Source of the DNA: a virus
Taxonomy: Duplodnaviria; Caudoviricetes
DNA: 54,421 bases
Reading direction: 5' to 3' (one strand)
Virus record (IMG/VR): IMGVR_UViG_3300045922_000842
Location: 1 to 54,421 of that record
Shown here piece after piece: positions 2,719 through 54,421 of this stretch. The notes under the pieces were generated by a model that saw only the letters and a program-made list of their open reading frames with translations, searched no databases and had not been told where the DNA came from. The translations under genes and the position numbers were made by a program. Positions within the stretch are counted from its first letter, which is position 1. The number at the start of each line of letters is the position of its first letter.

Positions 2719-5700
2719 ATGGCTACGTCCTCAATGCTTCAAGCAAGGGGCCTTGCGACATTTAACAACTACCTTTCAGCAGTTCCTGAAGGTGCTTTAA
2801 TTAAAGCTAACAATGTTGTTATTGATCGTACTGGTGTTATCGAGCCTAGGCGAGGTTTTAAGCAATACTCTATCCTAAACCAACCCCCAAAACAGCTTTT
2901 AAAGTATCGAGAAAAACTCCTAGTTCATTACGACGATATTCTTGCTTATGACGATGGCACGGGTACTTTATCTAACTACTTAGAACCTATTTTAGAAACC
3001 GAAGTTGGTCTTAGACTTAAGTTTATCGAAGAAAATGGTAATCTTTATCTAACTACATCTACCGGAATTAAAAAACTATCTGCGCTAAACGATCTATCAA
3101 TTGCAACTATTGAGGATGCAGGTGGTATAAAGGCTTTAACGGGCCAAGGAATAGCTGATTACAGTTTAGGCACGGGTTTCCTCCCCGGCCTGTCAAAAGT
3201 TGCTTATAGGCTTACCTGGGGCACTAAAGACATCAATGATAACTTTATTGAGGGAGCTCCGTCTCCGGTCGTCGAAGTAATTAATCAAAGCACAGAAAAT
3301 TGTAACATAATTATTACCTTTGATGTACCTAACGCCGTTACCTCTAATTATTTTTATAGACTTTATCGTACGGATATATTCACTGCTACAACACTAGAAG
3401 AACTCCCTGACATAAGAGTTAATGACGAATTACGACTCGTGTTCGAAGAAGCGTATGTTTCGGGACCTACTGTAACAATTACAGATGTTACTCCAAGAAC
3501 TTTTAGAGATTCTGGTCCTCCTCTTTATACTAACGAGTTTAGTGGAGAAGGTATACTTCAGTCAAACACTCCACCCCCTTTTGCGAAAGACATAGTTACC
3601 TACAAAGGCTACACTTTTTATGGTAATACCAAGCAAAAACATAGCTCACTCATCACTGTACTTGGTACTACTAAATTTACTTCTTTTGGTGCTGTAGAAG
3701 ACAGTATTGACATTGTGTCTATTGTTTATTCTGCCCCAGATACAGATATTACTTTTAGCTCAAGTAGTCATGGAATTACTATTGGGCAAAACATTGTAGT
3801 TAAGAACTCAGGTGCTTCTGGATTAGATGATTTAGTACATACTGTGGTTAATGTTTCTGGTGCTGTAATTACAATTACTGCTGATGGAACCGGAGCCAAT
3901 GCGGCTACATCAACTATTCACTCATCCTATCTTACAATAACTAAAGACACTACTGAAAATAACTATTACTTTGTGGGTCGTAAAGAGATTAATCAGCTCA
4001 CATTTGACGCCTATGCCGATGCGACCGAAAGAAGTGCAAAATACCCTGAAACTGGATTACTAAAACTTTATTCTAGCGAAGATGAAGTAGAGTATGCGTT
4101 ATGGTTTGCTCATAGCCCGACCTCTACACCACCGGCTTTCACTGGTGGAATTTTAATTAAAGTTGAAATATATAATACCTCTGCTACCAATATACAAGTT
4201 GCAGAAGCAGTATTTACAGCATTGTCTGAAAATAGTTTTGATTTTGAATACGTTGTAAATACTCCGGCTGGCACACTAGAAGTACAAACAGCTAGAAGTG
4301 GTAGTTCTACTAATCCAATTATAGACCCATTATTAACTGGAATAACAAATATCAATATACAAGAAGGGTATGGGGAAGACATTACAAAACAGTTTGTAAG
4401 ACTTCCAAAATTTCTTAGTGCTGGTTTATCTATTGATGATTTAACTAGATCGTTATGTAGAAACATTAATTCTAATGTCAATGAAGAAGTAAGTGCATTT
4501 TACATATTTAATAGTGCTGATTTGCCGGGTAGAATACAACTTGAGGCTAGAGTTTTAGATGATGTTTCCTTTACAGTATTAGCCAATAGCGTTGATGTGG
4601 GGTCTTCTTTTAATCCCGTACTTTCACCAGCAACTACGTCAACAAACGAAACTTTTCAAAATAGAATTTACTACTCTAAGTTTAGACAACCGGAAGCTGT
4701 ACCTATTGTAAATTTTATTGATGTCGGATCTAAGAATAAACCAATTGACAGGATTGTGTCATTAAGAGACAATCTATTTATTTTTAAGTCTGAGGGTATT
4801 TATAAACTTTCAGGGGATACCCCAAATACATTCTTTTTAGGTCTACAAGACAGCTCTGCTTTTTTAGTAGCCCCCGATGCACTTTCTGTATTAAACAACC
4901 AAATCATGGCATTTACAACACAGGGAGTAGTTCAAATTAGTGACTCTGGTGTTGGTATTATTTCTAGATCTATTGAAGACACTATTTTAAAAGTTATTGC
5001 CCCTGCTTTTACTAATACAAAAACACTGTCCTTTTCCACTTCTAGTGAATCAGACCGCACTTTCTTTCTATGGCTACCAGAGTCCACAAGTAGTACTTTT
5101 GGCGATGTATGTTATAGATATAATATATTTACACAAACCTGGACTACTATGGATCGAACAGCTAGGTGTGCCATTGACTTAAATAGTAGATTGTATATTG
5201 GTGCCGGGGATTTACCACAAATTGAACAAGAAAGAAAAAATTTAAATAAAACTGACTTTGCTGACCGCGTTTTTGATGTTTCTCTTCTTGCTAATTTTTA
5301 CAGCGGATCTGGTAGCACTATTAAAGTTGGATCTATTGCTAATATAGAGCGTGGAGATGTTTTAGTTCAGAGACAGTATGTTACAATAGCTATAGTTAAT
5401 CAACTTGCACAAAAACTAGCACAAGACCCTGGAGTACCACAAGCCGCTAAACCATTCTATCAAAATTTTATACTAGGTCCAGGAGTTAATCTGCAAAATG
5501 AAGTACAAACATTAATTACACAGCTAAATACAGATTTAGGTACAAGTTTTGATACTATTTTTAACTCTGACCCTTTAGTTTTTCAACTAGAATACAATTC
5601 TGTCATTTTAGATTTAAATCTTGCTCCAGAACTTATTTTTTCAAACTATAAACAAGCTTTAACTGCCATCGACTATGAATTTCTAGTAGAATCTGTTAAC

Positions 5701-15751: not shown

Positions 15752-17278
15752 TTAAAGCTTTTTAGTAGTAAATTTATTATTTATAAAATTTAACAGCTGT
15801 CTAGACCCATTTTCATGGATTAAGCAGTGCGTATTCATCCAAGATGATGGTCCACTACCATAGTCAGGGGATGTGGGGGTTGATGTACCCACACACCAAG
15901 CATCCCGCATAATTTCTGGTGTATGCATGTGTCCATACACTACTTTGCGATAAGCATTTTCCATTGAATTAATACCACCCTTAGATCCATTGGCACCCTT
16001 GTCCCCATGAGCACCTAGTTGTATTCCTTGAAAAGAATAATCCTCATCTCGACTTAGCCAGCGAATATTTTTTGGTTGTCGCGATCGGTTGAAATAATAC
16101 TCTAGTGGGTTATTTCCATTGATATAAGCAAGGGCTAATTCTAATGCAAGTTTATGGTTTTGGGGGTCATTAACATATCTACCCTCGTTTAAGTATCGCT
16201 CTAGGTGCTCATCGTGGTTAGATTTAACAATAACTACTTGACGGCTGTTAGAAAGCCAGATTAAGTCTCTAACATAGATGTCTAATTCAGCCTCTAAATT
16301 AAGTTTATTTTTAACCTGTTTTTTAGCCAATGTAATATTTTTACCAATATCATGGTGACTACAACTCGTTGCTGAAAAAGCATCGTGAAGTACAAAAGTA
16401 CTAATCCCTAGCTTTTTTCCTAAATTGTCAGTGTGTCTTGCTACATTGTAGTCCGTTTCACCCGCGTGCCAATCACCCAGGACTAAAACGCTAGGACTAC
16501 TTTTACTAACACCTTTTGGAGTGATTTTTTGATTTAAATCATAAAACACACCTTTTGGGTCACTTTGAATCTGCCTAAAATGAAAATGGCCGTCAGACTC
16601 AATTTCAACAATCAAAGCTCCTAAAGTATGGTCATGGTCAGCTAAATAGCTCGTTTTATCTACAAAACTTTTTTTAGCTAGGTAATTCTTTTTAGTCACG
16701 GCTCCAGTGCTCATAAGAGCATGTGGTAGCGCTGAGGGACCAGTAGCAACATACTTAAGTCTTTGTTTTGGCGAGGGGCAAATAATTGAACCATTTCGAC
16801 GCCCAATCCTAGGTAAACCGGTAATTGGATCTACCTGCTTAGCTCCGTTTCTAATACTAAGAATTGACAGATTATTATTAATGTCTGCGTCAGAATCAAT
16901 AATAGTTAATCCCCTAAGTGCAGGATCAAGTTCTAACTCTGAGTTTTGAAACGACACTAAAACAAGTAGTTGAGCATTATTTTTCTTACAGTATTTCTTA
17001 AGAGACTTAAGGAAGTCTTGGTTTACCTCTGCACCAGTAACCGCAGTTGTAATAATAAATCTATTTTTAGTTTGGTCAATCTGACTATTAAACTTTTCAA
17101 GATTTAAATCAAAAATATCATTCTTAATGTATGGATAGGCTTTTTCTTTTAATCCAGTAAGATTTTCTGAAAAAGTTCTAACCTCGGCTCTAGTAATTCC
17201 CAGAGTATTTAACTCTGCCATTTTTGGATAACGCTTGTGTTTTTTAACAAAACTAACAAAGGTTTTTAGTACGGACAT
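15752..17278 (-). CDS. Calcineurin-like metallophosphoesterase
   Basis: GDWH, LHD, SNHD, HGD and GHMH metal-binding motifs. Confidence 0.8.
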   Translation of the reverse strand: MSVLKTFVSFVKKHKRYPKMAELNTLGITRAEVRTFSENLTGLKEKAYPYIKNDIFDLNLEKFNSQIDQTKNRFIITTAVTGAEVNQDFLKSLKKYCKKNNAQLLVLVSFQNSELELDPALRGLTIIDSDADINNNLSILSIRNGAKQVDPITGLPRIGRRNGSIICPSPKQRLKYVATGPSALPHALMSTGAVTKKNYLAKKSFVDKTSYLADHDHTLGALIVEIESDGHFHFRQIQSDPKGVFYDLNQKITPKGVSKSSPSVLVLGDWHAGETDYNVARHTDNLGKKLGISTFVLHDAFSATSCSHHDIGKNITLAKKQVKNKLNLEAELDIYVRDLIWLSNSRQVVIVKSNHDEHLERYLNEGRYVNDPQNHKLALELALAYINGNNPLEYYFNRSRQPKNIRWLSRDEDYSFQGIQLGAHGDKGANGSKGGINSMENAYRKVVYGHMHTPEIMRDAWCVGTSTPTSPDYGSGPSSWMNTHCLIHENGSRQLLNFINNKFTTKKL

Positions 17279-20200
17279 TACTTACACTCCCCATAGCTAC
17301 GACCTACAATTGGTTCTGATTTTAATTTAATTGGATCTAAATTTACAGCAGTTTCCATCGCAAGTTTTGTAAGCTCTACCGCTTTATCAACTTGATCTTC
17401 CCGCACTTCAATGATTTGCTCATCGTGAATAGTCATAACAATATAACCATCAATCCCGTTTTCTTTAAATAAACGAGCTGTTTTAAGCATAGCCCTATTC
17501 ATTGCATGACCAGCAGTACCTTGAACTTGAAAGTTTACAGAATTGTTTAGCAAATTTTTATAAACCCTTCTTTGTTCTACAAGATTATGTTTCTTGGCCC
17601 ACCTTGAGTCAAGAAGTTTGTCTCCATACATTTTATACATATTTTTAAGTTCTTGCAAGTGTCTTGTTCTACCAAAGATAGTTTTAACAAATCCTTGCGT
17701 TTTTGCTAAATAGTGAGTCTTTTCAATAAAGTTCTTAATTCCTGGAAACGCAGAAAAATAACCTTGAATAAGTTCATCAGCTTTTTCTGGAGTGTCGTTA
17801 ATTACTTGTGATATTCGATACTTGTCGGCTCCGTAGAACACAGCCAGACAGTTATGTACTCTTATGTTATTAGCATAAAATTCATGTACAGACTCGACAG
17901 TTATGTCATAGACATCTTCGGTGCTACCTGGAGTTATTCTTAATACTCTACAGGTATCTTTTGATTTAAATATTTTAGGTGGAGTTGCGAGTTCTATAGC
18001 TTCTTTTTTCCTTGGGCACTGCAAAAATTCTGAAAGCCCCAATTGTTTAAGTAAAAATATACCTGATCTAGTCAATGAGATTGTATAATAATCTTTATTA
18101 TAAGTTTTATTATACTGTATTTGGAGCCTTGCGTCAACTCCTAAATCCGACAATAATTTACAGATATCAGAAGCAAAGTCTAAAGATTTTGTACAAACAG
18201 CAACGTCAGAATATTTTTTTGTTTTATTGTGCTTTAAATAGCCATCTGTATCAAAAAGTCCTGCTAAAAAAGCTAACCTAACTCTAAGATTACTATTAAA
18301 AACAAAAGGTTGTATTCTGAGATTTTTATGACCGCGCCCCTCATTACCAATACAAAATGCGTTTAGAGTTTTTTGAAATAAATTTGTCAGTTCAGTAGAA
18401 GAAATAAGAAATGTTTTAAAGCTTTGTTTTTGTTTACCGGGCGGTATCTCACGAGACCTATATCCAAAGCTTTCAAAAAAATCAACCCATTTATTTACAA
18501 CATTGTCTTCTGATAAACCACAAATACCCACATAGGCAGAAATTAAATGACTATTAATATTTCGTTTAGCCCGCTCTTTTCTATTAGTCCAAGAACCAAC
18601 GCCATCTCCCAGAAAAGCTCCTAATATCCAAGCCCAATCTTCGTTGAATGTTAATTCTAAAAAAGCATTTTTGTTTGGTTTTCCGATACTACTAACGGAA
18701 TAAAATGGTAGTTTTAAATAGTTTTCGGAATAGTTTCTAAAGTCTCGATTACTTTCTAAAATATCATTAATTTTTAATTTAGCAGCTTCTACCCAACAAT
18801 TATCTGTGTTTGACCAAATCTTATGGTCCGGCGTACACTTCAATATTCCTTTATTAGTAATAACTGTTACCGTTTCACTTTTTCTTGTAAAAGTGTTTGT
18901 AACTTTAAAATAACCTTTTTTAGTTTTAATTTGATCGCCGACAACAACTCTACTAATAAATGACATTTTATTTTCTAAATCAACTATAGTATCTTCTGTA
19001 AAGCAATAAGTTTTTGTTAAAGCTCTTTTTTTCTTATCAACTTTACCTAAGTAGTTTGGTTGATTTGAGTCCGCAGAAACGCCGCTTAATTTAAACTGTT
19101 TAATTGCAATGGCTGAGTAGAAATCTACATCGTCAATAAAAATTTGTTGGAGTCCTTTGTCCCCCGACACATAAGAAGCGACTCGCGGCTCTAAAGACGA
19201 AAAGTCTGATCCGATTAGTTTATACCCGTTTCTTGAGACAATACCGTTTCTTACTCCGTTAACAAATTCATCCATTGGTGTACCTGTTTTTTGCGGAGCT
19301 GGACAGTTTTGAAGATTAGGATTTCTAGAAGCAAATCTACCAGAAGTAGTTCCAAATTGCAGAAAAGAAGCTCTTAGTATTCCATCAGAGTTGATACGTT
19401 CTAAAATACCGTCATAATAGGTACTTTTCATTTTTTGGACAGTATTTAAATCTCGCAATTTTTCTATCCAAGGATAACGGTCCTTAATAGAGTCTAAAAA
19501 AGTATCATCAACTTGGGGAGCACCTTTATCAGTAGTAGATAGTGGCTCTTCGTTATAGCGACTAAAAAACAACCACTTTAAATGCTGTTTACTGTTTACA
19601 TTAAATATTGCAGTTTCTTCAGGATATTTTGTAAAATACATTTGCCTTTGAATAACTCTAGTTAAATTAGGATTTAATTCGATGTCAGAAGTTAGCCAAG
19701 TTTTAAACTGAGTTTGCTCGGGACTTTGAGGATTGATGCTTTGTATTGCTTTTTTAGATAGTGAATCTATTTCTAGTCCCACTACTTTTGCGTACATTTT
19801 AGGAAAATTACCAGTTTTTTTAACTGGAAACTCTTTCTCCAAAAGTTCGTCCTCAAATGCTTTAATATCACCAGAAATAGAATCCAGTACTTCTTTTTCT
19901 GTTTTCTTAATAAACTCAGTTCCTTTTTCTGAAAGTGTTTTATAAAGCTCAGTGTCAATTTGAACCCCCCGCTTCTTCATTGGAATTGTTACTTCTCTAT
20001 ACAGGGGCATTATTTCGTCTTCATAGAAAAGCTTATGAGTTCCTTCAATTTCAAGGGTTTGAGAGAATTTATTAAAGAGCTTATAGGTAAGCATTACATC
20101 GTAGGCACAGTATTCGCCTAAGACCTCCGTATCGGCCTTATACATCTCCAGATTGGTTTTAGTAATGCTCCCGCCATTGGTTTTTATGTTTTCGTATAAG

Positions 20201-20658
20201 CGTTCCTGGGCCTTATCTGCCCAAGCCCCAAGATACTTAACGGCAGTCTCTTTAAGTCCAAAAGGCTGCTCTTCGTCTACAACGTGCTTCATTAGGATTG
20301 TGTCTGCATAAATCGAATTGGTATGATCTATGCCAGTAGAAAAATACCAAACTAAAATATCGTACACAAGGTTGTGTCCAATAATTTTTTTAGATCCGAG
20401 TAGGTTGTTTATTAAAACATAAATACGCTCAGTAGTTTGAGGATCAAAATATAACTCCCCTAATTTATTCCTAATTGGAATATAAAACCCTTCGTCCTCT
20501 TCAAACGCTAAACCTATCCCATAAATATTAGCTGTTTCTTCGTTTACCGAGTCAGTTTCTAAGTCAAAAGAAACTATAGAAATATTACCAAACTCTGAGT
20601 TTACAAAGTCTATAAACTCAGTTAGAGTTAGTTTATCTAGAAACAAAACATGCTTCAT
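17278..20658 (-). CDS. polA: DNA polymerase family A with 3'-5' exonuclease, interrupted by an intein
   Basis: FDLET, GHNLVYD, YCAYD (exo); TTSGRFASRNPNLQN, SDFSSLEPR, NFQVQG, TIHDE (pol). Confidence 0.95.
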   Translation of the reverse strand: MKHVLFLDKLTLTEFIDFVNSEFGNISIVSFDLETDSVNEETANIYGIGLAFEEDEGFYIPIRNKLGELYFDPQTTERIYVLINNLLGSKKIIGHNLVYDILVWYFSTGIDHTNSIYADTILMKHVVDEEQPFGLKETAVKYLGAWADKAQERLYENIKTNGGSITKTNLEMYKADTEVLGEYCAYDVMLTYKLFNKFSQTLEIEGTHKLFYEDEIMPLYREVTIPMKKRGVQIDTELYKTLSEKGTEFIKKTEKEVLDSISGDIKAFEDELLEKEFPVKKTGNFPKMYAKVVGLEIDSLSKKAIQSINPQSPEQTQFKTWLTSDIELNPNLTRVIQRQMYFTKYPEETAIFNVNSKQHLKWLFFSRYNEEPLSTTDKGAPQVDDTFLDSIKDRYPWIEKLRDLNTVQKMKSTYYDGILERINSDGILRASFLQFGTTSGRFASRNPNLQNCPAPQKTGTPMDEFVNGVRNGIVSRNGYKLIGSDFSSLEPRVASYVSGDKGLQQIFIDDVDFYSAIAIKQFKLSGVSADSNQPNYLGKVDKKKRALTKTYCFTEDTIVDLENKMSFISRVVVGDQIKTKKGYFKVTNTFTRKSETVTVITNKGILKCTPDHKIWSNTDNCWVEAAKLKINDILESNRDFRNYSENYLKLPFYSVSSIGKPNKNAFLELTFNEDWAWILGAFLGDGVGSWTNRKERAKRNINSHLISAYVGICGLSEDNVVNKWVDFFESFGYRSREIPPGKQKQSFKTFLISSTELTNLFQKTLNAFCIGNEGRGHKNLRIQPFVFNSNLRVRLAFLAGLFDTDGYLKHNKTKKYSDVAVCTKSLDFASDICKLLSDLGVDARLQIQYNKTYNKDYYTISLTRSGIFLLKQLGLSEFLQCPRKKEAIELATPPKIFKSKDTCRVLRITPGSTEDVYDITVESVHEFYANNIRVHNCLAVFYGADKYRISQVINDTPEKADELIQGYFSAFPGIKNFIEKTHYLAKTQGFVKTIFGRTRHLQELKNMYKMYGDKLLDSRWAKKHNLVEQRRVYKNLLNNSVNFQVQGTAGHAMNRAMLKTARLFKENGIDGYIVMTIHDEQIIEVREDQVDKAVELTKLAMETAVNLDPIKLKSEPIVGRSYGECK
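17851..19005 (-). mobile_element. Intein (385 aa) with LAGLIDADG homing endonuclease, in polymerase motif B
   Basis: KTY|CFTEDT ... CTPDH ... VYDITV ... IRVHN|CLAVFYG; LGAFLGDG and LAGLFDTDG blocks. Confidence 0.95.
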
Positions 20659-23140: not shown

Positions 23141-23475
23141 GTTGTTACTCCTTCTTTTTTGATTTCGTTTGCTGTTTGTTCTAATTTTTGCTTTAGTTCT
23201 TCGTCTTTTTGCACTGCTTCAAGCATAACTTTTTTGTTTTCACCCATTGCAAGGCAAAGTAAAAATAGATCGTTTTCGTCTTTCTTTAATAACTCCGGTT
23301 GAGTTTTATTAAAAGGAAACTCCTGTACTGCAATAAATGCTCTTCGTAATGATCTTAGGCTCATATTAGAAATTTTAACTTTCAGTTCACTAGTAAGTCC
23401 CATAAAGTTACGAGCAGCCATGTTTACTTCCGGGGTGTCTAAGTGGTCAACTTCTTGTTTTACTTCTTCGCTCAT
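23137..23475 (-). CDS. Hypothetical protein
   Basis: ATGA coupling to neighbouring genes. Confidence 0.55.
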   Translation of the reverse strand: MSEEVKQEVDHLDTPEVNMAARNFMGLTSELKVKISNMSLRSLRRAFIAVQEFPFNKTQPELLKKDENDLFLLCLAMGENKKVMLEAVQKDEELKQKLEQTANEIKKEGVTT

Positions 23476-24014
23476 AATTCATCCCGCTGTCTGTTTGAAA
23501 AAGACACTTTTTTTGGTGTCATTAATGTTACCGGAGCTGGTGGTGGAGGAACTGCAGTAGATTTTGAATTACTAGTTAATTCTGGGCTTTCTAGATCCCC
23601 ATCAACCATGTCTTCTGTAGGAACACTGAAAGTTTGAATTAGTGCATATTTTAAAGCGGCAGAAAGGGCTTTATTAGTTGCTTTATCACCACTGTCTAAT
23701 CCCTCTGCTGCAATAGGTCCCACTGTAACTTTAGACCCGTCTTCAGCATAAAAATCATACTCTACCATTAAGTGGACAGTTTTATCTACCCCAACTTTTC
23801 CGTTCGACCTAGTAATCTCTCGTTCGGTATGATTAACAGAAATAACTCTAGGAGTCATAAAAACACCAGCTTTTGTAAGAGCAGGATACAGAGCATTTAC
23901 GAATTGATCGATCCCTCTAAATTTAAATCCTTGCTGTAAGTTTTTCTGATCCTTACTTACTGCCTTAATCGATGACATTACCTCTGACATTTTTTTATAA
24001 ATTAAATTTGACAT
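23472..24014 (-). CDS. erf: ERF-family single-strand annealing protein
   Basis: KDQKNLQQGFKFRGID, DSGDKATNKALSAALKYALIQTF. Confidence 0.85.
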   Translation of the reverse strand: MSNLIYKKMSEVMSSIKAVSKDQKNLQQGFKFRGIDQFVNALYPALTKAGVFMTPRVISVNHTEREITRSNGKVGVDKTVHLMVEYDFYAEDGSKVTVGPIAAEGLDSGDKATNKALSAALKYALIQTFSVPTEDMVDGDLESPELTSNSKSTAVPPPPAPVTLMTPKKVSFSNRQRDEL

Positions 24015-24036: not shown

Positions 24037-24375
24037 TTATCTTTGAGTCTTAAATAACTTTCTAGAAGTTCGTTCCGCAGTTTTTGCTACAGCTACTGCA
24101 ATATTGTCCGTAAGATCTGAAACAGCATTAATTTTAGCATAGTCGTGTTCTAAGTTGTAGTCAATTAAAACTTGCACAAACTTTTTAGTTTCTTTATTGT
24201 AAAAAACATCTTGAGCTTGTTGAGTAGAGAAGGTTTTTTCCGGTTCCCCAATTTCCATAAGTTCTTCTTTTGTTTCCTCAACCGAAACTGGTTTTACTGC
24301 TTCGGTAATACCCAGTAACTCTTCTACATTATCAAAAAGATTATCCTCTTTTACTACTAGTTTTTTCTTAGACAT
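24037..24375 (-). CDS. Hypothetical protein
   Basis: In-operon ORF with RBS. Confidence 0.5.
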   Translation of the reverse strand: MSKKKLVVKEDNLFDNVEELLGITEAVKPVSVEETKEELMEIGEPEKTFSTQQAQDVFYNKETKKFVQVLIDYNLEHDYAKINAVSDLTDNIAVAVAKTAERTSRKLFKTQR

Positions 24376-25459
24376 TTTCTAGTCCCTCCATTTTGTTTTT
24401 ATAGCATAACCCAAAATAAGGACAAAGTCCACCCCAATAATTAGTACAGTTATTAAGATTTCTAGGAAATATCTGTGCTTTAATAGCCTCATTTACAGTG
24501 TCTACATTCTCAATTACTATTTGCTCTGTCTGCTCAGGAATTTCGTCTATTAGGATTTGAATATCAATATCAGGCTTAATTGTTTCTTTCCAGGCCCCCC
24601 CGCATCTTTTCTCATTAACGATGTTGTTGCAGGTCTTATGTTTTGATCCAGAGCCGTCATAAGAGCAAACACTACAAATTTTAGTTCTATTTTTATTAAC
24701 TATTTTTTTTAAAACAATATATCCAGCTTTTCGAGTTTTATACTTATCGCTTGTAGCGTGGAGATACAGCGCTAATTGTGAGGACGTAACTACACTATCG
24801 GCGGCATACTCTCTAGTAGAAGTTTTATTGTCTAAGATAACAAGACCGTGATCTCCAAACTCAGCAACTAAATCTAAATACCCAGTAACTTTTTCATCAA
24901 GTTCATTAGATAATTCAATTTGTTCCTGAACTGATATTACTTTTTTTACAGAGGGAATTACTTTTTTAAGATAAGCCCTTAACATTAACTTACCCTTGTT
25001 TCGCATACTCAACCAGTTAAACAGGTTATATATTCTAAGGTCGTCAGCGGATAAGCTCTTTACTGACGGGGATAATCGTTGGTATAAGTCCAATGGATGA
25101 CCAAAGTCTTCCCCGTGTATTTTTTTATAAGTGCTTTCAATCTGTTTGATATCCTCGTCAGTAAGAAGGTCAAAATCAAAATCTGTTTTCGAATAAACCA
25201 CTTTCTCGCAGGTAGGAAGATAGTATTCTTTATTGTTGATTTTACCCATTGTAAACTGTTTTTCAAATTCCACCTCTGCTTTTTCTAAATTTTTTTCTAA
25301 TAATAAAATGTTTAGAGCCGAATCAAGGGCGCTACCGAAAAGCAAGGCCCCGCTTGTAACTTGCGGCCTAATCTTTTTAACGTAGTGGTACTCATAGCTT
25401 TTAGGGCACATTGAGTATTTAGATATTTGCGAGTGGCTTAGTGGGGATCTTTTAGTCAT
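24368..25459 (-). CDS. PD-(D/E)XK (RecB/Cas4-like) exonuclease
   Basis: LSHSQI..CP, GYLDL, ILDNKT, QLALY, C-terminal C...CPY..LC; the MTKRS start after GGAG is preferred. Confidence 0.85.
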   Translation of the reverse strand: MTKRSPLSHSQISKYSMCPKSYEYHYVKKIRPQVTSGALLFGSALDSALNILLLEKNLEKAEVEFEKQFTMGKINNKEYYLPTCEKVVYSKTDFDFDLLTDEDIKQIESTYKKIHGEDFGHPLDLYQRLSPSVKSLSADDLRIYNLFNWLSMRNKGKLMLRAYLKKVIPSVKKVISVQEQIELSNELDEKVTGYLDLVAEFGDHGLVILDNKTSTREYAADSVVTSSQLALYLHATSDKYKTRKAGYIVLKKIVNKNRTKICSVCSYDGSGSKHKTCNNIVNEKRCGGAWKETIKPDIDIQILIDEIPEQTEQIVIENVDTVNEAIKAQIFPRNLNNCTNYWGGLCPYFGLCYKNKMEGLENV

Positions 25460-26209
25460 CTCTTCTCCAAAGAATCTTTTTAGTAAAATGGTGACGAATA
25501 GCCACGCCTTTTTTGTCCACAATAACTTCTCCCCTTAGTTGTTTGTACCGCCAAGAGTTTTTACTAAACCTACCTACAATAAGCTCCAACTCATCCAAAG
25601 ATAAATCAGTAAGCTCCATAGCTTTAGCCAGGTTATTATTATCCGACAAGTAAAAAGAGTCAATTAAAAAATTCATTTCTTTAATACTGTAATTATTAAA
25701 ATGTCTGAATTTACTGAATCTGGGTCTATGGACACACTAAAAATACTGCCTTTTGTTTCCCCGTAAGTTTCTGTGAGAAGTTTATCTAGAACACTATTTA
25801 TAGATTCTAAATCATAACAACGCATAATATCTTCAATTTCAGCAGCTGTTGATCTAAGTTGATACATTACCATTTCACTCTCCTATTTTTTATATAAAGG
25901 ACAATAATCACTGTGGCCTGTGTTTTCCCCATACACCCAGGACCCACATTCGCACCCATTTCCTTTTGATGGCTTGGTTGTATTTGTAGTGAAATTTACA
26001 GGGGAATCTTCCATATCAAAAGGGAAACCAAAAGCGTCTGAGATTGGCAATTGTGTGAAATCAGGTATGAAAAGTTTCCCCCTACTGTCTACCCAAGAGC
26101 TTAGACCTTCGTCCCAAGTATATGTTTCATTATTTTTATAATCATAAAACTTTTCTTGGTCAATCGGAGTATTTTTTAAAGTTCCGTCCGGAAAAATAGT
26201 TTTATTCAT
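25452..26209 (-). CDS. Three small hypothetical genes (25452-25676, 25673-25873, 25883-26209)
   Basis: Coupled minus-strand ORFs; the last ends in a CECG..HSDYCP metal-binding-like motif. Confidence 0.5.
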
Positions 26210-48962: not shown

Positions 48963-49201
48963 TAGAACTCCCAGGTATAGGATATTTTTTGATCTTGTAC
49001 GGATTTAATAACCAGTCCCACGTTCCCAAGGATTTTCTGGGTGTCTTTACCTACGTTTTTATTTAGAAAATCCTGGAACATCTTATCTATCTCCAACTGT
49101 ACCATCAGTGCCTCCGCAGCTTTTTGGACTGCGGTGGTTTCTGTGTTCGCTAGAACAAATGGCGCGCTAGTTAAAAGTACGAAGGCTGTCAATGCGCCCA
49201 T
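48962..49201 (-). CDS. Small secreted protein ending ISYTWEF
   Basis: GAGGA RBS, signal peptide MGALTAFVLLTSAPFVLA. Confidence 0.5.
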   Translation of the reverse strand: MGALTAFVLLTSAPFVLANTETTAVQKAAEALMVQLEIDKMFQDFLNKNVGKDTQKILGNVGLVIKSVQDQKISYTWEF

Positions 49202-49961
49202 TATTAGTCCTCGAATCTTTGAACTCAACAGGTACTGCATCTTCAAGTGCTCCCTTTGTTGGTACAACTAAAGCTAACCTATCTACAAATCCTAGCTTAA
49301 AAGCGTCTGGTCCGTCAAGCCATAATTCATCCCTAGAAAGCTGTTTAAATTTAACATACTCCATTTTACTCCGAGAAACTGCGTGTTGGTCAAAACGATC
49401 CACGTATTTGTTGATTGTTTTTAACAAGCTGGACATTTCTTCTAATGTTCCTTTTAGTCCACCAGAGGCGGGGTGAAACATGATAATAGCTTTTTCGCCG
49501 GAGTATCGGGTTTTACCTGCCTGTAGGATGTGTGCCCCCATTGAAGCACATAAAAGTTTACAGTATGTATTAATTACCATTGGAGATGAGTTTATATAAG
49601 CAATCAATTCAGCTCCAGCAAAAACACTGCCGCCCGGACTGTCGATAACCAACAAAGCCTCTCGGTACCCCCGCATTCTAATTTGCTCTAGTCTAGCCAA
49701 CGTTAAAGCTACGCTTCTAGGATTTACGGAGCCAGCTAAAACAGCAATCTGATCTAAATCAATACCCAATCTTACAACCTGCAGTTGTTCCGGTGCAGCC
49801 TTAACAGACAAGTTTTCTTTTGATTTGGTATTCGGCACAGAAAAAGGAATTAAGACTTCTTCTTGAGTCACCAGACCTGAGTTATTATTGATAATAGCTA
49901 AGGTTATTGGTAAACCTATAACCAACACCAAAGCAATCCCTAAAACAATATATCTTGACAT
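49167..49961 (-). CDS. Membrane-anchored ClpP/crotonase-fold serine protease
   Basis: IDSPGGSV, CASMG, IMFHP, ELWL..A...G.VD; N-terminal TM. Confidence 0.85.
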   Translation of the reverse strand: MSRYIVLGIALVLVIGLPITLAIINNNSGLVTQEEVLIPFSVPNTKSKENLSVKAAPEQLQVVRLGIDLDQIAVLAGSVNPRSVALTLARLEQIRMRGYREALLVIDSPGGSVFAGAELIAYINSSPMVINTYCKLLCASMGAHILQAGKTRYSGEKAIIMFHPASGGLKGTLEEMSSLLKTINKYVDRFDQHAVSRSKMEYVKFKQLSRDELWLDGPDAFKLGFVDRLALVVPTKGALEDAVPVEFKDSRTNNGRIDSLRTFN

Positions 49962-50364: not shown

Positions 50365-50777
50365 TGAGTAATGTAATTGATATAAACGAACTCCGTAAAA
50401 AAGCGGAGTCTATTTCTAAACCAAAAGACTTAAAAGCTTTTATTGAAGCTCAGCATGAACTCATTGGTAAGTTACAAAGAGATTTAATTTTTCTTCAAGA
50501 CAAACTCAAAGATGCTGAAAGATTGCTTCTATCCGCACCTAAGACTCAGCTATCAGTTAGTCCAGAGGAAATGATTTGTATTGAACAAATTGAAATGCTG
50601 CGCAATAGGTCTTATGGTCGAGAGCTTTCTTTGGATGAAGTAAAGCGCCTTGATTTGCTTGTTAAAAACCTAAGACTTATTCGTGAACAATCAACCCAGG
50701 TATTAAATACTACCGCATACGAACATATTAAGGAAGATGAGCTCCTCTCAATTGCCGCAAAAAGCGAGGATAGATAA
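50364..50777 (+). CDS. Possible terminase small subunit
   Basis: Helical 137-aa protein directly upstream of, and overlapping, terL; positional only. Confidence 0.4.
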   Translation: MSNVIDINELRKKAESISKPKDLKAFIEAQHELIGKLQRDLIFLQDKLKDAERLLLSAPKTQLSVSPEEMICIEQIEMLRNRSYGRELSLDEVKRLDLLVKNLRLIREQSTQVLNTTAYEHIKEDELLSIAAKSEDR

Positions 50778-52206
50778 GAGGCAAGCCGTCGCAGAGCTTT
50801 GGCGACGCGGCACTTTAAAATGGAAGTTGTATCCACACCAGTTGGAAATGTACGACTTTATTCATAACAACCCTGCTCCAGTATTAGTAATTGCCTCTAG
50901 CAGACAAATCGGTAAATCAACACTGTCTACCCTACTTGCTGTAGAAGAGTGCATTAAAAAACCAAATAGCATTGTTAAATTCGTTGCTCCTAAAGTAAAA
51001 GACATTAGGCGCATTATTGCACCAATTATAAGAGATTTAACAAAAGATTGCCCACCAGATGTCAGGCCAAAGTATAATACGCAGGATCATATTTATAGAT
51101 TTCCTAACGGAAGTGAAATTCAGTTAGCTGGTACAGATAATGGGCATGCAGAATCTATTCGCGGTACTAAAGCTAATTTGTGTATTATTGACGAAGCTGG
51201 GTTTTGTGATGACTTAGATTACGTTGTCAGTTCAGTTTTAGTTCCGACACTCACGACGACCGGTGGAAAAATTATAATGATTTCTACTCCATCTAAATCT
51301 CCTGACCATCCTTTTATGGAGTTTATGGCGGAGGCTGAAGCCGAGGGTAGATTCATTAAGCGAACTATTTATGACAATACAATGTTGTCTAGGGAGCAAA
51401 TTAAAAAGATTGCGGAAGCTATCGGCGGAGAAGACAGTGTTGACTTCAAACGAGAATATTTAGTAGAAAAGATTATTTCTGAGGACGATGCGGTAATTCC
51501 TGAGTTTACTGACGAGTTGCAGAAAAAAATTGTTGTAGAAACTACTCGGCCTCCATTTTTTGATTCTTATGTTTCGATGGATATTGGTGGTCGAGACTTA
51601 ACTGTTGTATTATTTGCTTTTTACGATTTTTTGGGCGGTAGGACTGTTATTGAGGATGAGCTTGTTTTTAACCGTAAAATCTTAACGGACGAGCTTGCTT
51701 ACGCAATTAAAGAAAAAGAAGAGACGCTGTGGGCACACCCTATTACCAAAGAACCACACAGACGAATACTGCGAGTTGCGGACAACAATAATATTATTCT
51801 TCTTAATGATTTAGCGGCTAAGCATGAAATTGCTTTCGTACCAACTGCAAAAGATAATAAAATTGCCGCCCTTAATAATATGCGAATGATGCTAAAAACT
51901 GGTAAAATCATTATTAATCCAAGATGTAAAACTCTTATTAGTCACCTTAAAGGTGCAATTTGGAACAAAACTAAAACAGATTTTGCTAGAAGTACCGACA
52001 AGGGTCACTACGATAGCGTATCTGCAATGATGTATTTAACTCGAAATATTAATTTGACAAAAAACCCGTATCCTGGTAACTATAGTTTTAGTGGAAAAGA
52101 AAGCGTTGTCTTCTTACAAAAAGAAGAAACTCTTTCTAATTTCGAGCGACAACTAGTTGAAAAGACCAAATCTTTTAAACTTTACAGCCGCTGGAAAAAA
52201 AACTAG
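50737..52206 (+). CDS. terL: Terminase large subunit
   Basis: SRQIGKST Walker A, IIDEA Walker B, ISTP, MDIG and HYDSVSAMMY nuclease motifs. Confidence 0.93.
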   Translation: MSSSQLPQKARIDKRQAVAELWRRGTLKWKLYPHQLEMYDFIHNNPAPVLVIASSRQIGKSTLSTLLAVEECIKKPNSIVKFVAPKVKDIRRIIAPIIRDLTKDCPPDVRPKYNTQDHIYRFPNGSEIQLAGTDNGHAESIRGTKANLCIIDEAGFCDDLDYVVSSVLVPTLTTTGGKIIMISTPSKSPDHPFMEFMAEAEAEGRFIKRTIYDNTMLSREQIKKIAEAIGGEDSVDFKREYLVEKIISEDDAVIPEFTDELQKKIVVETTRPPFFDSYVSMDIGGRDLTVVLFAFYDFLGGRTVIEDELVFNRKILTDELAYAIKEKEETLWAHPITKEPHRRILRVADNNNIILLNDLAAKHEIAFVPTAKDNKIAALNNMRMMLKTGKIIINPRCKTLISHLKGAIWNKTKTDFARSTDKGHYDSVSAMMYLTRNINLTKNPYPGNYSFSGKESVVFLQKEETLSNFERQLVEKTKSFKLYSRWKKN

Positions 52207-52560
52207 CAGCGAACTCCACCTGGGACCGTCAAAAAATGGCTTAGACTTGTATGAGAGAGCCGGATATAGATGCCGCACCCACGGGGACATGCATCACTAG
52301 GAAACGAGCATTAAGTTCCTAGCGGAAAGCCTGGCTGGAGAGTCCGTAAGGACACAGTAGTAAGCAATCGGTACAAGCGAACTTACTATAAGCGAAGACA
52401 ATTTGAGTCCGTTTAGTGACAGTTTCAAGGTCGCTAGACCATCGACTCCAGGGATTGGGGTGAAATCTTGTCGTACTTAACCTCAATCCTCGGTTGAAAA
52501 CAGTAAAACTACGACTGTTTATTCAACTAGTATATAATATATGATATATAGACCGAGGTG
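52207..52560 (+). ncRNA. Candidate structured RNA (or structured DNA site) between terL and portal
   Basis: No ORF; at least eight stems; G-U pairs and a GUAA tetraloop favour the + strand. Confidence 0.5.
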
Positions 52561-52673
52561 CGTTTAAAATTATATAGGCTTTTTTAGGATAAAATTAATA
52601 ATATTAATAGTATACCATAATATATTTAAAAAATAATTGTCTTGAAATAATGTCAGTGTTATAATTAAGCTTA

Positions 52674-52683
52674 TTAACATATA
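52674..52683 (+). promoter_or_regulatory. TTAACATATA motif, putative late promoter for the portal gene
   Basis: Starts 23 nt before the ATG, the same spacing as the 6558 copy. Confidence 0.55.
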
Positions 52684-52696
52684 AATCGAGGTACTT

Positions 52697-54421
52697 ATGT
52701 CAGAATATTTCGCTAAGAAGCCAGCTTCAGAGGCAGCAGCCGTTATCCTTTCTAGATCTGAAGATTGGTTTAAGGGTTTGTATTCAAACGGATACTTCGA
52801 TAAAGTTAAAATGAGTTGGCTTGCATACCATGGAGCATACTATGGATCTGATCACTCCATCTCTTTTGGTGGTGAGCAGGGTGAACTAGCTCAAATGGCG
52901 GTAAATCACTATAGAAATATTGGTGATTTAATGTGTACCTTAATTACAAATACACGTCTTGCATATCGAGCAAGAGCTACTAATAGTGATAGTAAGTCAC
53001 TTATTCAAACAGATTTAGCAAATGGTCTATTAGATTACTATGTTCGTCAAAAACGAATCGAAAAGTACATTCAACACTCTGTAAAGCAGGCTGTAATTTT
53101 AGGAAGCGGGTACATTAAAGTTGACTGGAACGCCACTTCAGGCGAAATATATGATTATCATCCTGAAACTAATGCCCCAATCTATGAAGGTGACATTGAA
53201 TTTTCAAATTTAGAGCCATTTGATGTTGTTTTTGATCCTAATAAAGGATCAAATGACAAACACGAGTGGGTTGTTTGTCGATCCTTTAAAAATAAATACG
53301 ATTTGGCTGCAAAATACCCTGAATTTAAAACTAAAATTGAAAATTTAGGTACAAAATCAGATTTAATTAACTATAAAACAGGTTTTACACTAGCTTCTAC
53401 TGAAAAATCGGACGACGTACCAGTTTATGAGTTTTTTCATACTCGAACTGAGTCTCTACCTGAAGGTAGATACATGTTACTTTTGTCTCCAGACTTAGTT
53501 TTAATTGATATGCCTATGCCATATCGAAGATTGCCTATTTTTAGGATCGTTCCTGCTGAAATTATGGGAACTCCGTTTGGCTATACTTCAATGTTTGACT
53601 TATTACCACTCCAAGATGCGCTAAACTCATTATATAGCACTGTTTTAACAAACCAACACGCATTTGGTGTACAGAACATTTACATCCCAAGAGGAGCTGA
53701 CATCCAATATAAGGCACTAGAGGGTGGGTTAAACATTATCGAGGGTAATTCTGGAGCTGGTGAGCCTAAGGCAATGAACTTTACTCAGACTCCGGCGGAA
53801 GTTTTTAAATTTATTGAGATGCTAAAGAAGGAAATGGAAACTATCTCTGGAATGAACTCTGTAATCAGAGGTGATCCAGAAGCTTCTATTAAATCTGGTG
53901 CAGCAATGGCCTTAGTTCAATCTATGGCTTTACAGTTTATTTCTGGCCTACAAACTCAATACATCCACTTAGTTGAAGACATTGGTATGATGGTGGTTGA
54001 GCTATTAAGAGACTTTGCCACGGTTCCAAGAGTAGCTCTTATCGCTGGTGAAAGTAATTACGGTTATGTAAAAGAGGAGTTTACTGGTGACGATTTATCT
54101 GAAGTAGACAGAGTAATTGTAGATATTGGTAATCCAATTGCCGTAACAAATGCCGGTAAAATGCAAATGGCATCGGAACTTCTCCAATATGGTCTAGTAA
54201 AAACTCCAGAAGACTATTATACTGTTTTAAATACTGGACAATTTGCTTCTTTTGTAGAAGATCCACAAAAAAGTAATAACTTTGTAAAACGAGAAAACGA
54301 AAAGCTTCTTAGGGGTCAACCTGTTAGAGCTTTAGCTACTGATGCGCACACATATCACATTAGAAAGCACAAAGCCCTACTAGATGACCCAGACATGAGA
54401 GATTCTGAAAGTCCAGTAGTC
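52697..54421 (+). CDS. Portal protein (truncated at window end; absent from the ORF track)
   Basis: GAGG RBS, ATG 52697, MSEYFAKKPASEAA..; frame appears open to the edge; VNHYRNI, GSGYIKVDW and PFDVVFDP segments are P22-like; follows terL. Confidence 0.85.
   Translation, partial: MSEYFAKKPASEAAAVILSRSEDWFKGLYSNGYFDKVKMSWLAYHGAYYGSDHSISFGGEQGELAQMAVNHYRNIGDLMCTLITNTRLAYRARATNSDSKSLIQTDLANGLLDYYVRQKRIEKYIQHSVKQAVILGSGYIKVDWNATSGEIYDYHPETNAPIYEGDIEFSNLEPFDVVFDPNKGSNDKHEWVVCRSFKNKYDLAAKYPEFKTKIENLGTKSDLINYKTGFTLASTEKSDDVPVYEFFHTRTESLPEGRYMLLLSPDLVLIDMPMPYRRLPIFRIVPAEIMGTPFGYTSMFDLLPLQDALNSLYSTVLTNQHAFGVQNIYIPRGADIQYKALEGGLNIIEGNSGAGEPKAMNFTQTPAEVFKFIEMLKKEMETISGMNSVIRGDPEASIKSGAAMALVQSMALQFISGLQTQYIHLVEDIGMMVVELLRDFATVPRVALIAGESNYGYVKEEFTGDDLSEVDRVIVDIGNPIAVTNAGKMQMASELLQYGLVKTPEDYYTVLNTGQFASFVEDPQKSNNFVKRENEKLLRGQPVRALATDAHTYHIRKHKALLDDPDMRDSESPVV

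Follow-up and report, generated by a model that had tools for sequence, protein, structure and literature searches.

A hairpin-rich, non-coding segment of a phage genome, lying where the genes for the large terminase (terL) and the portal protein would otherwise adjoin, is a member of a conserved family of structured RNAs. The genome is represented by the 54,421-nt Caudoviricetes contig IMGVR_UViG_3300045922_000842, analyzed here as a whole and referred to as the window; the record is viral, 65% complete, and derived from a hot-spring / microbial-mat metagenome. The window copy of the RNA is on the plus strand, begins directly behind terL, and has been inserted at the terL–portal junction. In total, 32 copies were found on 27 records (26 viral contigs including the window, plus one island in a bacterial metagenome-assembled genome, MAG), which corrects the uniqueness implied by the wording of an initial annotation of this DNA. 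Beyond membership, we give about even chances to a more specific reading, namely that an autonomous RNA gene of modular build, ~300–350 nt long and belonging to a family outside Rfam 15, is present at positions 52207 to ~52540 in a copy without a promoter.

Comparison with the other members shows that the 5′ ~130 nt of the element (52212–52345) form the core of the family, a four-helix junction composed of P1a/P1b, P2, P3, and P4. The element starts at the terL stop with CAGCGAAC, and upstream alignments delimit a 5′ leader, CAGCGAA(C), at 52207–52213; its GCGAAC motif recurs in copies L198 and L199 at the position predicted for the start of transcription. The 5′ strand of P1a, CUCCACCUGGG (52214–52224), pairs with 52330–52340 in the constrained fold and occupies columns 6–17/196–204, with its partner strand, in our family alignment A8. 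The next stretch (52225–52236) consists of an A at 52225 that is invariant in 27 of 27 aligned copies, the P1b 5′ strand CCG (52226–52228), and junction letters UCAAAAAA, for which the family consensus is GGACCGUGAAAUAG. The P2 hairpin UGGCUU ... GAGCCG (52237–52262) varies in length across the family, and it is followed by the conserved junction J2/3, GAUAUA (52263–52268), seen in alignment A8 and in a further alignment, A6. In the P3 hairpin GAUGC ... GCAUC (52269–52295) both the sequence and the length of the loop vary, and in the P4 hairpin CUAGGAA ... UUCCUAG (52297–52322) the loop letters ..CG.. and ..AUUAAGU are conserved. The core closes at 52323–52340 with the P1b 3′ strand CGG (52323–52325), the internal-loop letters AAAG (52326–52329), and the P1a 3′ strand CCUGGCUGGAG (52330–52340); CGGAAAGCC, within this stretch, is a signature of the family. 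All of these parts lie on the plus strand. Near-invariant letters are found in the junction (GGACCGUNAAA, GAUAUA, CGGAARGCC) and in part of the P4 loop; the window carries all of the signature motifs, and P1a, P1b, P3, and P4 can form in it, as seen in its rows of A6 and A8. In the internal loop that separates P1a from P1b, one A faces A-A-N-G; this A and the G are invariant in all members, and the outline may be that of a kink-turn-like motif.

Support for this structure comes from the way in which the helices change. Alignment A8 contains 27 rows (26 distinct sequences) with 27 pairs in five helices, or 660 pair cells, of which 88.8% are paired; the value is 64.1% in shuffles, none of 500 reaching the observed one, and 30–44% when the partners are slid, and double changes occur in 22 of the 27 pairs; these figures come from an alignment fitted to the model structure, which favours pairing, and several of its rows are closely related, so the cell counts overstate independent events. 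By helix, the proportion of paired cells is 100% in P3 (double changes in 4 of 4 pairs), 92% in P4 (5 of 7), 84% in P1a (8 of 9), and 72% in P2 (3 of 4), the last being the least consistently aligned. P1b, with CCG opposite CGG, shows compensatory A:U pairs in the unrelated copies L199 and L206 and a G:C flip in L196, and a pseudoknot of ACCG with the P3 loop was dropped in its favor. A MAFFT alignment of three lineages, not fitted to the model, is 85.1% paired compared with 74.1% in shuffles and has 9 pairs with double changes compared with 3.6 (0 of 500 shuffles as high). Furthermore, the G+C content of the core exceeds the mean of its locus in 22 of 22 copies. Homologues with covarying helices thus exist.

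The finding of the family depended on short motifs and on covariance models. Searches of the element by blastn and nhmmer against 160 terL loci gave no match, because in relatives the element sits elsewhere; likewise, blastn against 50,697 phage records gave none for the window element or for three other members, and an exact 22-mer scan of viral contigs gave none. A single 41-nt blastn match outside the core, obtained with one query, was judged to be due to chance. BLAST against 33 full viral records of terL relatives recovered the same 37 nt (element positions 91–127) in three records. A motif made from these matches identified eight contigs, and a second motif identified the same eight plus one false match, L188, which lies inside an open reading frame (ORF) of 133 aa. 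Three lineages were recognized at first (the window, L183, and a group of seven contigs), with a common core of ~130 nt whose helices differ but stay paired. A covariance model, R1, built from six sequences of the seven-contig group with the window left out, matches the window at 52212–52342 (+) with 31.5 bits (E = 7.6e-7), the sole significant match in its 54 kb; it matches L183 at 16.9 bits, with nothing else of note in 69 kb. Of 74 viral records searched with model R2, 13 gave a match, and second, diverged copies in five genomes are included; the model also confirmed 12 and 2, respectively, of the 13 and 7 new contigs from two further motif scans. A further copy is located upstream of terL in L086 (one of 90 loci), and another, L231, in a bacterial MAG (one of five genomes), within a prophage-like island on a chromosomal contig of 75.8 kb, where a phage capsid gene is ~3.6 kb away. 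Candidates L225–L229, which are GC-rich and lack the 5′ motif, were rejected, and the counts leave out the unconfirmed L210 and the weak model matches G023 and G015 (E ~0.02).

Eleven of 16 nearly complete relatives carry no copy, and under stricter filters none of 150 sampled bacterial genomes from the phylum of genome G092 matched, G092 excepted. Five relatives of ~60–82 kb (G001, G032, G071, G072, and G073) have two copies each; the second copies are strongly diverged, scoring 25–36 bits compared with 45–151 bits for the first, and in four of these genomes (not G072) the second copy is within ~4.5 kb of a contig end.

Folding of the single sequence agrees with an RNA on the plus strand. The plus-strand fold has an energy of −107.2 kcal/mol (z = −3.42, with 1 of 100 shuffles as good), and the minus-strand fold is not better than shuffles (z = −0.84). 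In the family alignment, G.U cells outnumber A.C cells 58 to 24, which likewise favours the RNA strand, so the orientation proposed at the outset is upheld. Most of the stems listed in the initial annotation are present in the fold: GGCT/AGCC is P2, GATGC/GCATC is P3, and CTAGGAA/TTCCTAG is P4, at exactly the coordinates given for it (52297–52322); GTCC-GTAA-GGAC, TAGTAAG/CTTACTA, TTTAGTGAC/GTCGCTAGA, GGATTGGGGT/ACCTCAATCC, and GTTGAA-AACAGT/ACTGTT-TTCAAC also form. The exception is CTGGAG, which had been paired with CTCCAG; these letters (52334–52339) lie in the closing helix P1, as part of its 3′ strand, and their partner is CUCCA (52214–52218). P1 is the pairing that comparison supports, and it competes both with CTGGAG/CTCCAG and with a long-range closing helix, formed in the unconstrained fold, in which the P1 5′ strand pairs with 52551–52565. 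When the family structure is imposed on 52207–52600, the fold is 5.6 kcal/mol less favorable than without constraint.

Taken as a whole, the element (52207–52540, +) is delimited by its insertion relative to 145 of 153 relatives, by the model matches, and by the fold, and comprises the 5′ leader, the four-way-junction core, and a series of 3′ hairpins. Members differ behind the core, and the hairpins between 52342 and 52528 rest on single-sequence folding. The first two, GUCC-GUAA-GGAC (52342–52353) and GUAGUAAG ... CUUACUAU (52357–52389), occupy 52342–52389, and three more would follow: GAGUC[GUUUAGUGAC ... GUCGCUAGAC]GACUC (52405–52448), GGGAUUGGGGU ... ACCUCAAUCCU (52451–52490), and GGUUGAAAACAGU ... 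ACUGUUUAUUCAACU (52492–52528), all on the plus strand. Between these groups lies a second motif, GACAAUUU (GACAWUUY; 52398–52405, +), that recurs in some members: in L199, L197, L204–L206, and one of two copies examined from the seven-contig group (fam2), that of L192. A related stretch, GACAUUC/AUAUUC/UUAUUC...CUGUGCC, is present in L208, L209, and L212, and the region 52405–52528 has partial similarity to the 3′ region of L199.

The genes on either side of the element are securely identified. terL (50737–52206, +) is complete, matches PF03237 (E = 3.6e-11), and aligns over its full length with 30 homologues; its stop codon TAG (52204–52206) directly adjoins the RNA element. The portal gene (52697–54421, +) runs off the window, matches PF16510 (P22_portal; E = 3.9e-12), and aligns with relatives from residue 1–4. 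These profile matches confirm the gene calls and, with them, the distance of 490 nt between the two genes that had first drawn attention to the locus. There is no credible ORF in this gap, and searches of Pfam and PHROGs with its five longest open pieces gave no match, on which grounds the idea of a protein remnant was dropped. A group I or group II intron was excluded, given that terL and portal are full length compared with relatives and that no intron model matches at E ≤ 10. G+C content is ~0.47–0.50 over 52200–52500, compared with 0.33–0.39 in the flanking genes and 0.22 over 52500–52700. The absence of a credible ORF, the raised G+C content, and the stems in the fold bear out the initial description of a hairpin-rich non-coding segment (~52207–52540). 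Two sequencing runs contain the sequence and are apparently its source data set; the contigs compared showed no variants and no joined, insert-free form.

That the segment is an insertion is evident from relatives of this terL, collected at 41–61% identity, in which the spacer was measured wherever both genes were present. All 78 such viral loci have a gap of −23 to 85 nt, and among 75 metagenome loci a gap of −14 to 85 nt is seen in 67; the initial statement that the two genes are normally adjacent therefore holds in 145 of 153 related loci, with a gap of at most 85 nt. The eight other metagenome loci (L120, L140, L141, L145, L148, L149, L155, and L157) have gaps of 256–1376 nt filled by protein ORFs and not by the RNA element. 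Six of these ORFs encode ~250–270 aa with a hydrophobic N-terminus, one encodes 93 aa, and one encodes 355 aa on the opposite strand. The terL–portal junction of this phage group is thus a recurrent insertion site.

Remnants of the ancestral junction can be recognized behind the element. In 14 of 14 close relatives examined (L002–L006, L009, L013, L015, L082–L086, and L088), the spacer reads stop-CATAT(A/T)...GAGG/AGGA...ATG; that is, CATAT(A/T) stands directly after the terL stop, with a ribosome-binding site of the GAGG type and the portal ATG behind it. Possible roles for this short word include late promotion of transcription, processing, and coupling. The window retains the same layout at 52675–52696 (+) as TAA-CATATA-AATC-GAGGT-ACTT with the portal ribosome-binding site, the portal ATG ending at 52699, and because this spacer is kept behind the insert, the RNA element must have entered between the terL stop and the ancestral spacer. 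A degenerate spacer-like copy, GATATATAGACCGAGGTGCG (52544–52563, +), recognized as direct repeat D4 and by its likeness to the spacers of the 14 relatives, sets the right limit of the RNA element. Between the two spacer copies lies an AT-rich segment of ~110 nt (52564–52674, +; GC ~0.2), so that the order is terL, RNA element, spacer copy 1, AT-rich segment, spacer copy 2, portal. The AT-rich segment looks as if it arose separately from the RNA element, by another insertion or by duplication, and it contains a promoter-like site facing portal, TTGTCT-17-TATAAT (52637–52665, TG-extended).

This arrangement bears on whether the element acts as DNA, for example as a structured single-strand or transcription-activated site of replication or recombination, of which a replication origin was one version offered initially. 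An AT-rich tract follows the window copy, copies occur in either orientation and once or twice per genome, and four small phages have the element beside recombination genes: Erf in L221 and L212, and a RecE-like exonuclease in L207 and, together with RecT, in L223, that is, genes for single-strand annealing or exonuclease proteins. On closer inspection the tract is a peculiarity of the window, a separate segment between two spacer copies; it was not found in other members, where the only other stretch below 0.25 GC behind a core is one in L211 (0.18). The excess of G.U over A.C cells and the presence of promoters on one defined strand also speak for RNA, and in the 80-kb phages the Erf gene lies far from the RNA, with Erf also occurring in phages that lack it. 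An Erf cluster was considered as a partner (four of five 80-kb carriers compared with none of two non-carriers) and set aside, as the non-carriers have another Erf subfamily. The origin proposal is not supported by these observations, and we regard any function at the DNA level as very unlikely.

The location of the window copy had also suggested a packaging RNA that, like the pRNA of phi29, would act on the portal/terminase motor. The two share some general features, in that both are phage non-coding RNAs of a few hundred nt or less, and the window copy is beside packaging genes, indeed between terL and portal; moreover, the L199 and L086 copies are just upstream of terL, and L211/L220 have the RNA 0.8 kb from a terL of a different type. 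These are exceptions. Among ~170 terL loci of this phage group, a copy near the window-type terL, within 2.5–3.5 kb, is limited to three: the window, L199, and L086; only one of 13 newly found carrier records has a terL of the window type; and the remaining copies lie away from packaging genes, among tail-fibre-like, early, or recombination genes. Carriers have terL-type terminases of different, unrelated families, most of the nearly complete relatives do without the RNA, as noted above, and there is no match to the pRNA model (RF00044). We consider a role in packaging highly improbable, and that part of the initial proposal, like the origin, is not supported; what stands is its core, a structured plus-strand phage RNA absent from Rfam 15.

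It is also worth considering how the family relates to RNAs that have been described. An Rfam 15 scan of the whole window, as had been advised, returned no match at the gathering score, and for 52100–52750 only unrelated matches at E of 3 or more. The element of L186 gave nothing beyond IMES-1 (18.7 bits compared with a cut-off of 81), nine other members gave no match, and ARAGORN found no tRNA or tmRNA (transfer-messenger RNA) gene in the window. Literature searches by topic and by motif strings returned no description of the family. ROOL and GOLLD are large stand-alone, intricately folded RNAs of phages and prophages that have neither a fixed neighbor gene nor a known function (see bioRxiv 10.1101/2024.12.08.627333). 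The present family would be like them a stand-alone folded phage RNA with no fixed neighbor, but it matches neither Rfam model, is smaller at ~300–350 nt with a 130-nt core, and has no tRNA neighbors. A published survey (PMC10690425) gives 8,495 candidate RNAs of 29–151 nt from IMG/VR, in its DNAVirus_N set, and thus shares with the present work both its data source and its type of object, a conserved intergenic phage RNA with covariation. The main text of that survey, the part with which we compared, names no such motif, and the core described here may be among its candidates.

In light of the variety of sites and carriers, an autonomous RNA gene is an attractive explanation. Copies are antisense to both neighbors at a conserved site between tail-fibre-like genes in the seven-contig group, L197, L214, L215, and L222, and again in L196 and L198, which makes three independent sites in all. 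Sense copies are those of the window, of L199 and L086, both upstream of terL, and of the majority of ~40-kb phages. Five complete or nearly complete ~40-kb carriers have no protein cluster common to at least four of them, and the RNA family crosses unrelated phage lineages. It is this variation in orientation and position, together with the lack of a shared protein among carriers, that leads us to propose an autonomous gene. An own upstream promoter is typical of the family although not universal: a sigma-70-like site matching at least 9 of 12 positions no more than 90 nt upstream on the RNA strand is present in 14 of 24 copies, compared with 14% of random windows from the same loci, and four of these sites match 11–12 of the 12 positions. 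In L231, a hairpin-U9 terminator (1345–1385, −) lies 308 nt from the core start, which implies a separate RNA gene of ~320 nt at that copy, the sole one with a clearly defined 3′ end. The L183 copy sits in an 823-nt non-coding gap that has a second promoter-like site (TTGACA ... TATAAT-like, ~3632–3600) followed by ~180 nt of non-coding sequence; this region (3420–3668, − strand) possibly encodes another small RNA.

Several observations weigh against this reading, and a number of them favor its main rival, a cis-acting leader. Such a leader might be a riboswitch-like aptamer or an RNA of processive antitermination like put, which in the window would control read-through from terL into portal; we think this unlikely. 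The put RNAs of phage HK022 are promoter-proximal, number up to two per genome (putL and putR), and act without a phage protein; they are two simple stem-loops in ~70 nt. Strict terminators follow only one of 25 copies, that of L231, so the many others could be 5′ leaders of longer transcripts. The RNA is promoter-proximal in the 14 copies mentioned above, and in the window itself there is no site of at least 9 of 12 positions within −90..+5, so that this copy would be read through from the terL transcript. In several ~40-kb phages, sense copies stand just upstream of genes, as a cis-regulator would; counting these, L207, L212, L221, L213, L208, L209, and the window have this arrangement. A conserved core with variable sequence downstream resembles an aptamer plus expression platform, as do a closing P1, variable peripheral helices, and invariant junction letters in riboswitch aptamers built on multi-helix junctions; the alternative pairing of the window P1 5′ strand with 52551–52565 is a further point in favor; and two copies in some genomes recall putL and putR.

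Other facts are difficult to accommodate in a leader. A fixed 5′-leader position before functionally related genes was not found: the genes downstream are mutually unrelated (Erf, exonuclease, HNH endonuclease, unknowns, and portal), copies at three sites are antisense to both neighbors, and some are directed away from any operon. Conservation extends to part of the 3′ region (GACAWUUY), a promoter-like site of its own precedes portal downstream of the element in the window, searches gave no match to a known riboswitch or leader family, and a 130-nt four-way-junction core is quite different from put. Other points also weigh against an autonomous gene. The two cautions that attach to alignment A8 apply here as well; by GC-adjusted energy the segment is only 40th of 445 sense-strand windows of the contig, so stability alone is unexceptional and the strong evidence is comparative; and the fold of a relative's copy reaches a z of only −0.67. 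Comparative support for the 3′ two-thirds of the window element is patchy. No RNA sequencing run contains the window sequence, and transcription is therefore something that we infer. As to function, what we propose, a trans-acting RNA that would bind a partner, is a prediction.

If the element is an autonomous RNA gene, the window copy would be made on the plus strand, late, by read-through of the terL transcript. The RNA would act in trans as a self-contained unit, with the invariant junction predicted to be a specific binding or catalytic core. It would neither control terL or portal nor belong to the packaging motor. As no protein is common to the carriers, the partner expected for it is a host factor or a small ligand. 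One can speculate further that the invariant junction binds a host molecule, such as a nucleotide second messenger or a protein of defence or RNA processing, as a decoy or sponge, or else that it is the core of a new ribozyme; we put this forward tentatively, as an improbable idea. If true, it would explain the same core in unrelated phages without a common protein, as well as the two diverged copies in some genomes and the moron-like movement between intergenic sites.

A ribozyme taken by itself, for example a new self-cleaving class with the invariant junction as its active site, could process itself out of the late transcript. The junction, a compact one of several helices that vary freely around unpaired letters that hardly change, is suggestive of one, as is occurrence in phages with variable place, orientation, and copy number, a pattern known from several self-cleaving classes; furthermore, the promoter-less window copy would need processing to become a discrete RNA. 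Against this, no known ribozyme model matches, most copies start at a promoter of their own and would have no need of excision, and no cleavage-site signature was identified. On balance a ribozyme seems distinctly unlikely.

Still less weight attaches to a template RNA of a reverse-transcriptase system, of the retron or UG27 type, the chance of which we regard as next to negligible. In the UG27 report (bioRxiv 10.64898/2026.09.22.753630), the non-coding RNA units are described as phage-borne, ~135–167 nt long, conserved in structure and diverse in sequence, with short discontinuous motifs around a variable central hairpin, an outline not unlike that of the present core with its variable P3. 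By the same account UG27 needs a reverse transcriptase, and none was found here: RVT_1 (PF00078) is absent from the window and from 10 of 10 nearly complete carrier genomes, whereas control genomes responded, which contradicts a cis-encoded enzyme. In addition, the copies are single and do not form arrays.

Clues to the hosts of the carrier phages are weak. Two terL relatives (L167 and L168) and the chromosomal copy L231 are in MAGs of Bdellovibrionales, pointing to Bdellovibrionota, and the best match of this terL in a cultured phage, at 29% identity, is to a phage infecting Silvanigrella; the bins of further terL relatives belong to Bacteroidia/Flavobacterium and to other groups. Apart from the RNA, the window phage encodes a family A DNA polymerase (17278–20658, −) carrying an intein with a LAGLIDADG homing endonuclease, and intein or LAGLIDADG domains are also found in three terL homologues elsewhere (P0049, P0095, and P0103). 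It also encodes an ERF-family annealing protein (23472–24014, −), a PD-(D/E)XK nuclease (24368–25522, −), and a ClpP-like protease (49167–49961, −).

Only a few non-coding RNAs of phages have conserved cores that look tertiary, and for hardly any of them is a role known. The family described here is defined well enough for testing, with a 130-nt core, a consensus backed by covariation, a covariance model, and natural variants. For annotation, the presence of the RNA element explains a puzzling gap of 490 nt in an otherwise tightly packed packaging module. More broadly, the occurrence of the same core in unrelated carriers that have no protein in common suggests that the RNA has a target in the host or is active by itself, and either would be new biology.

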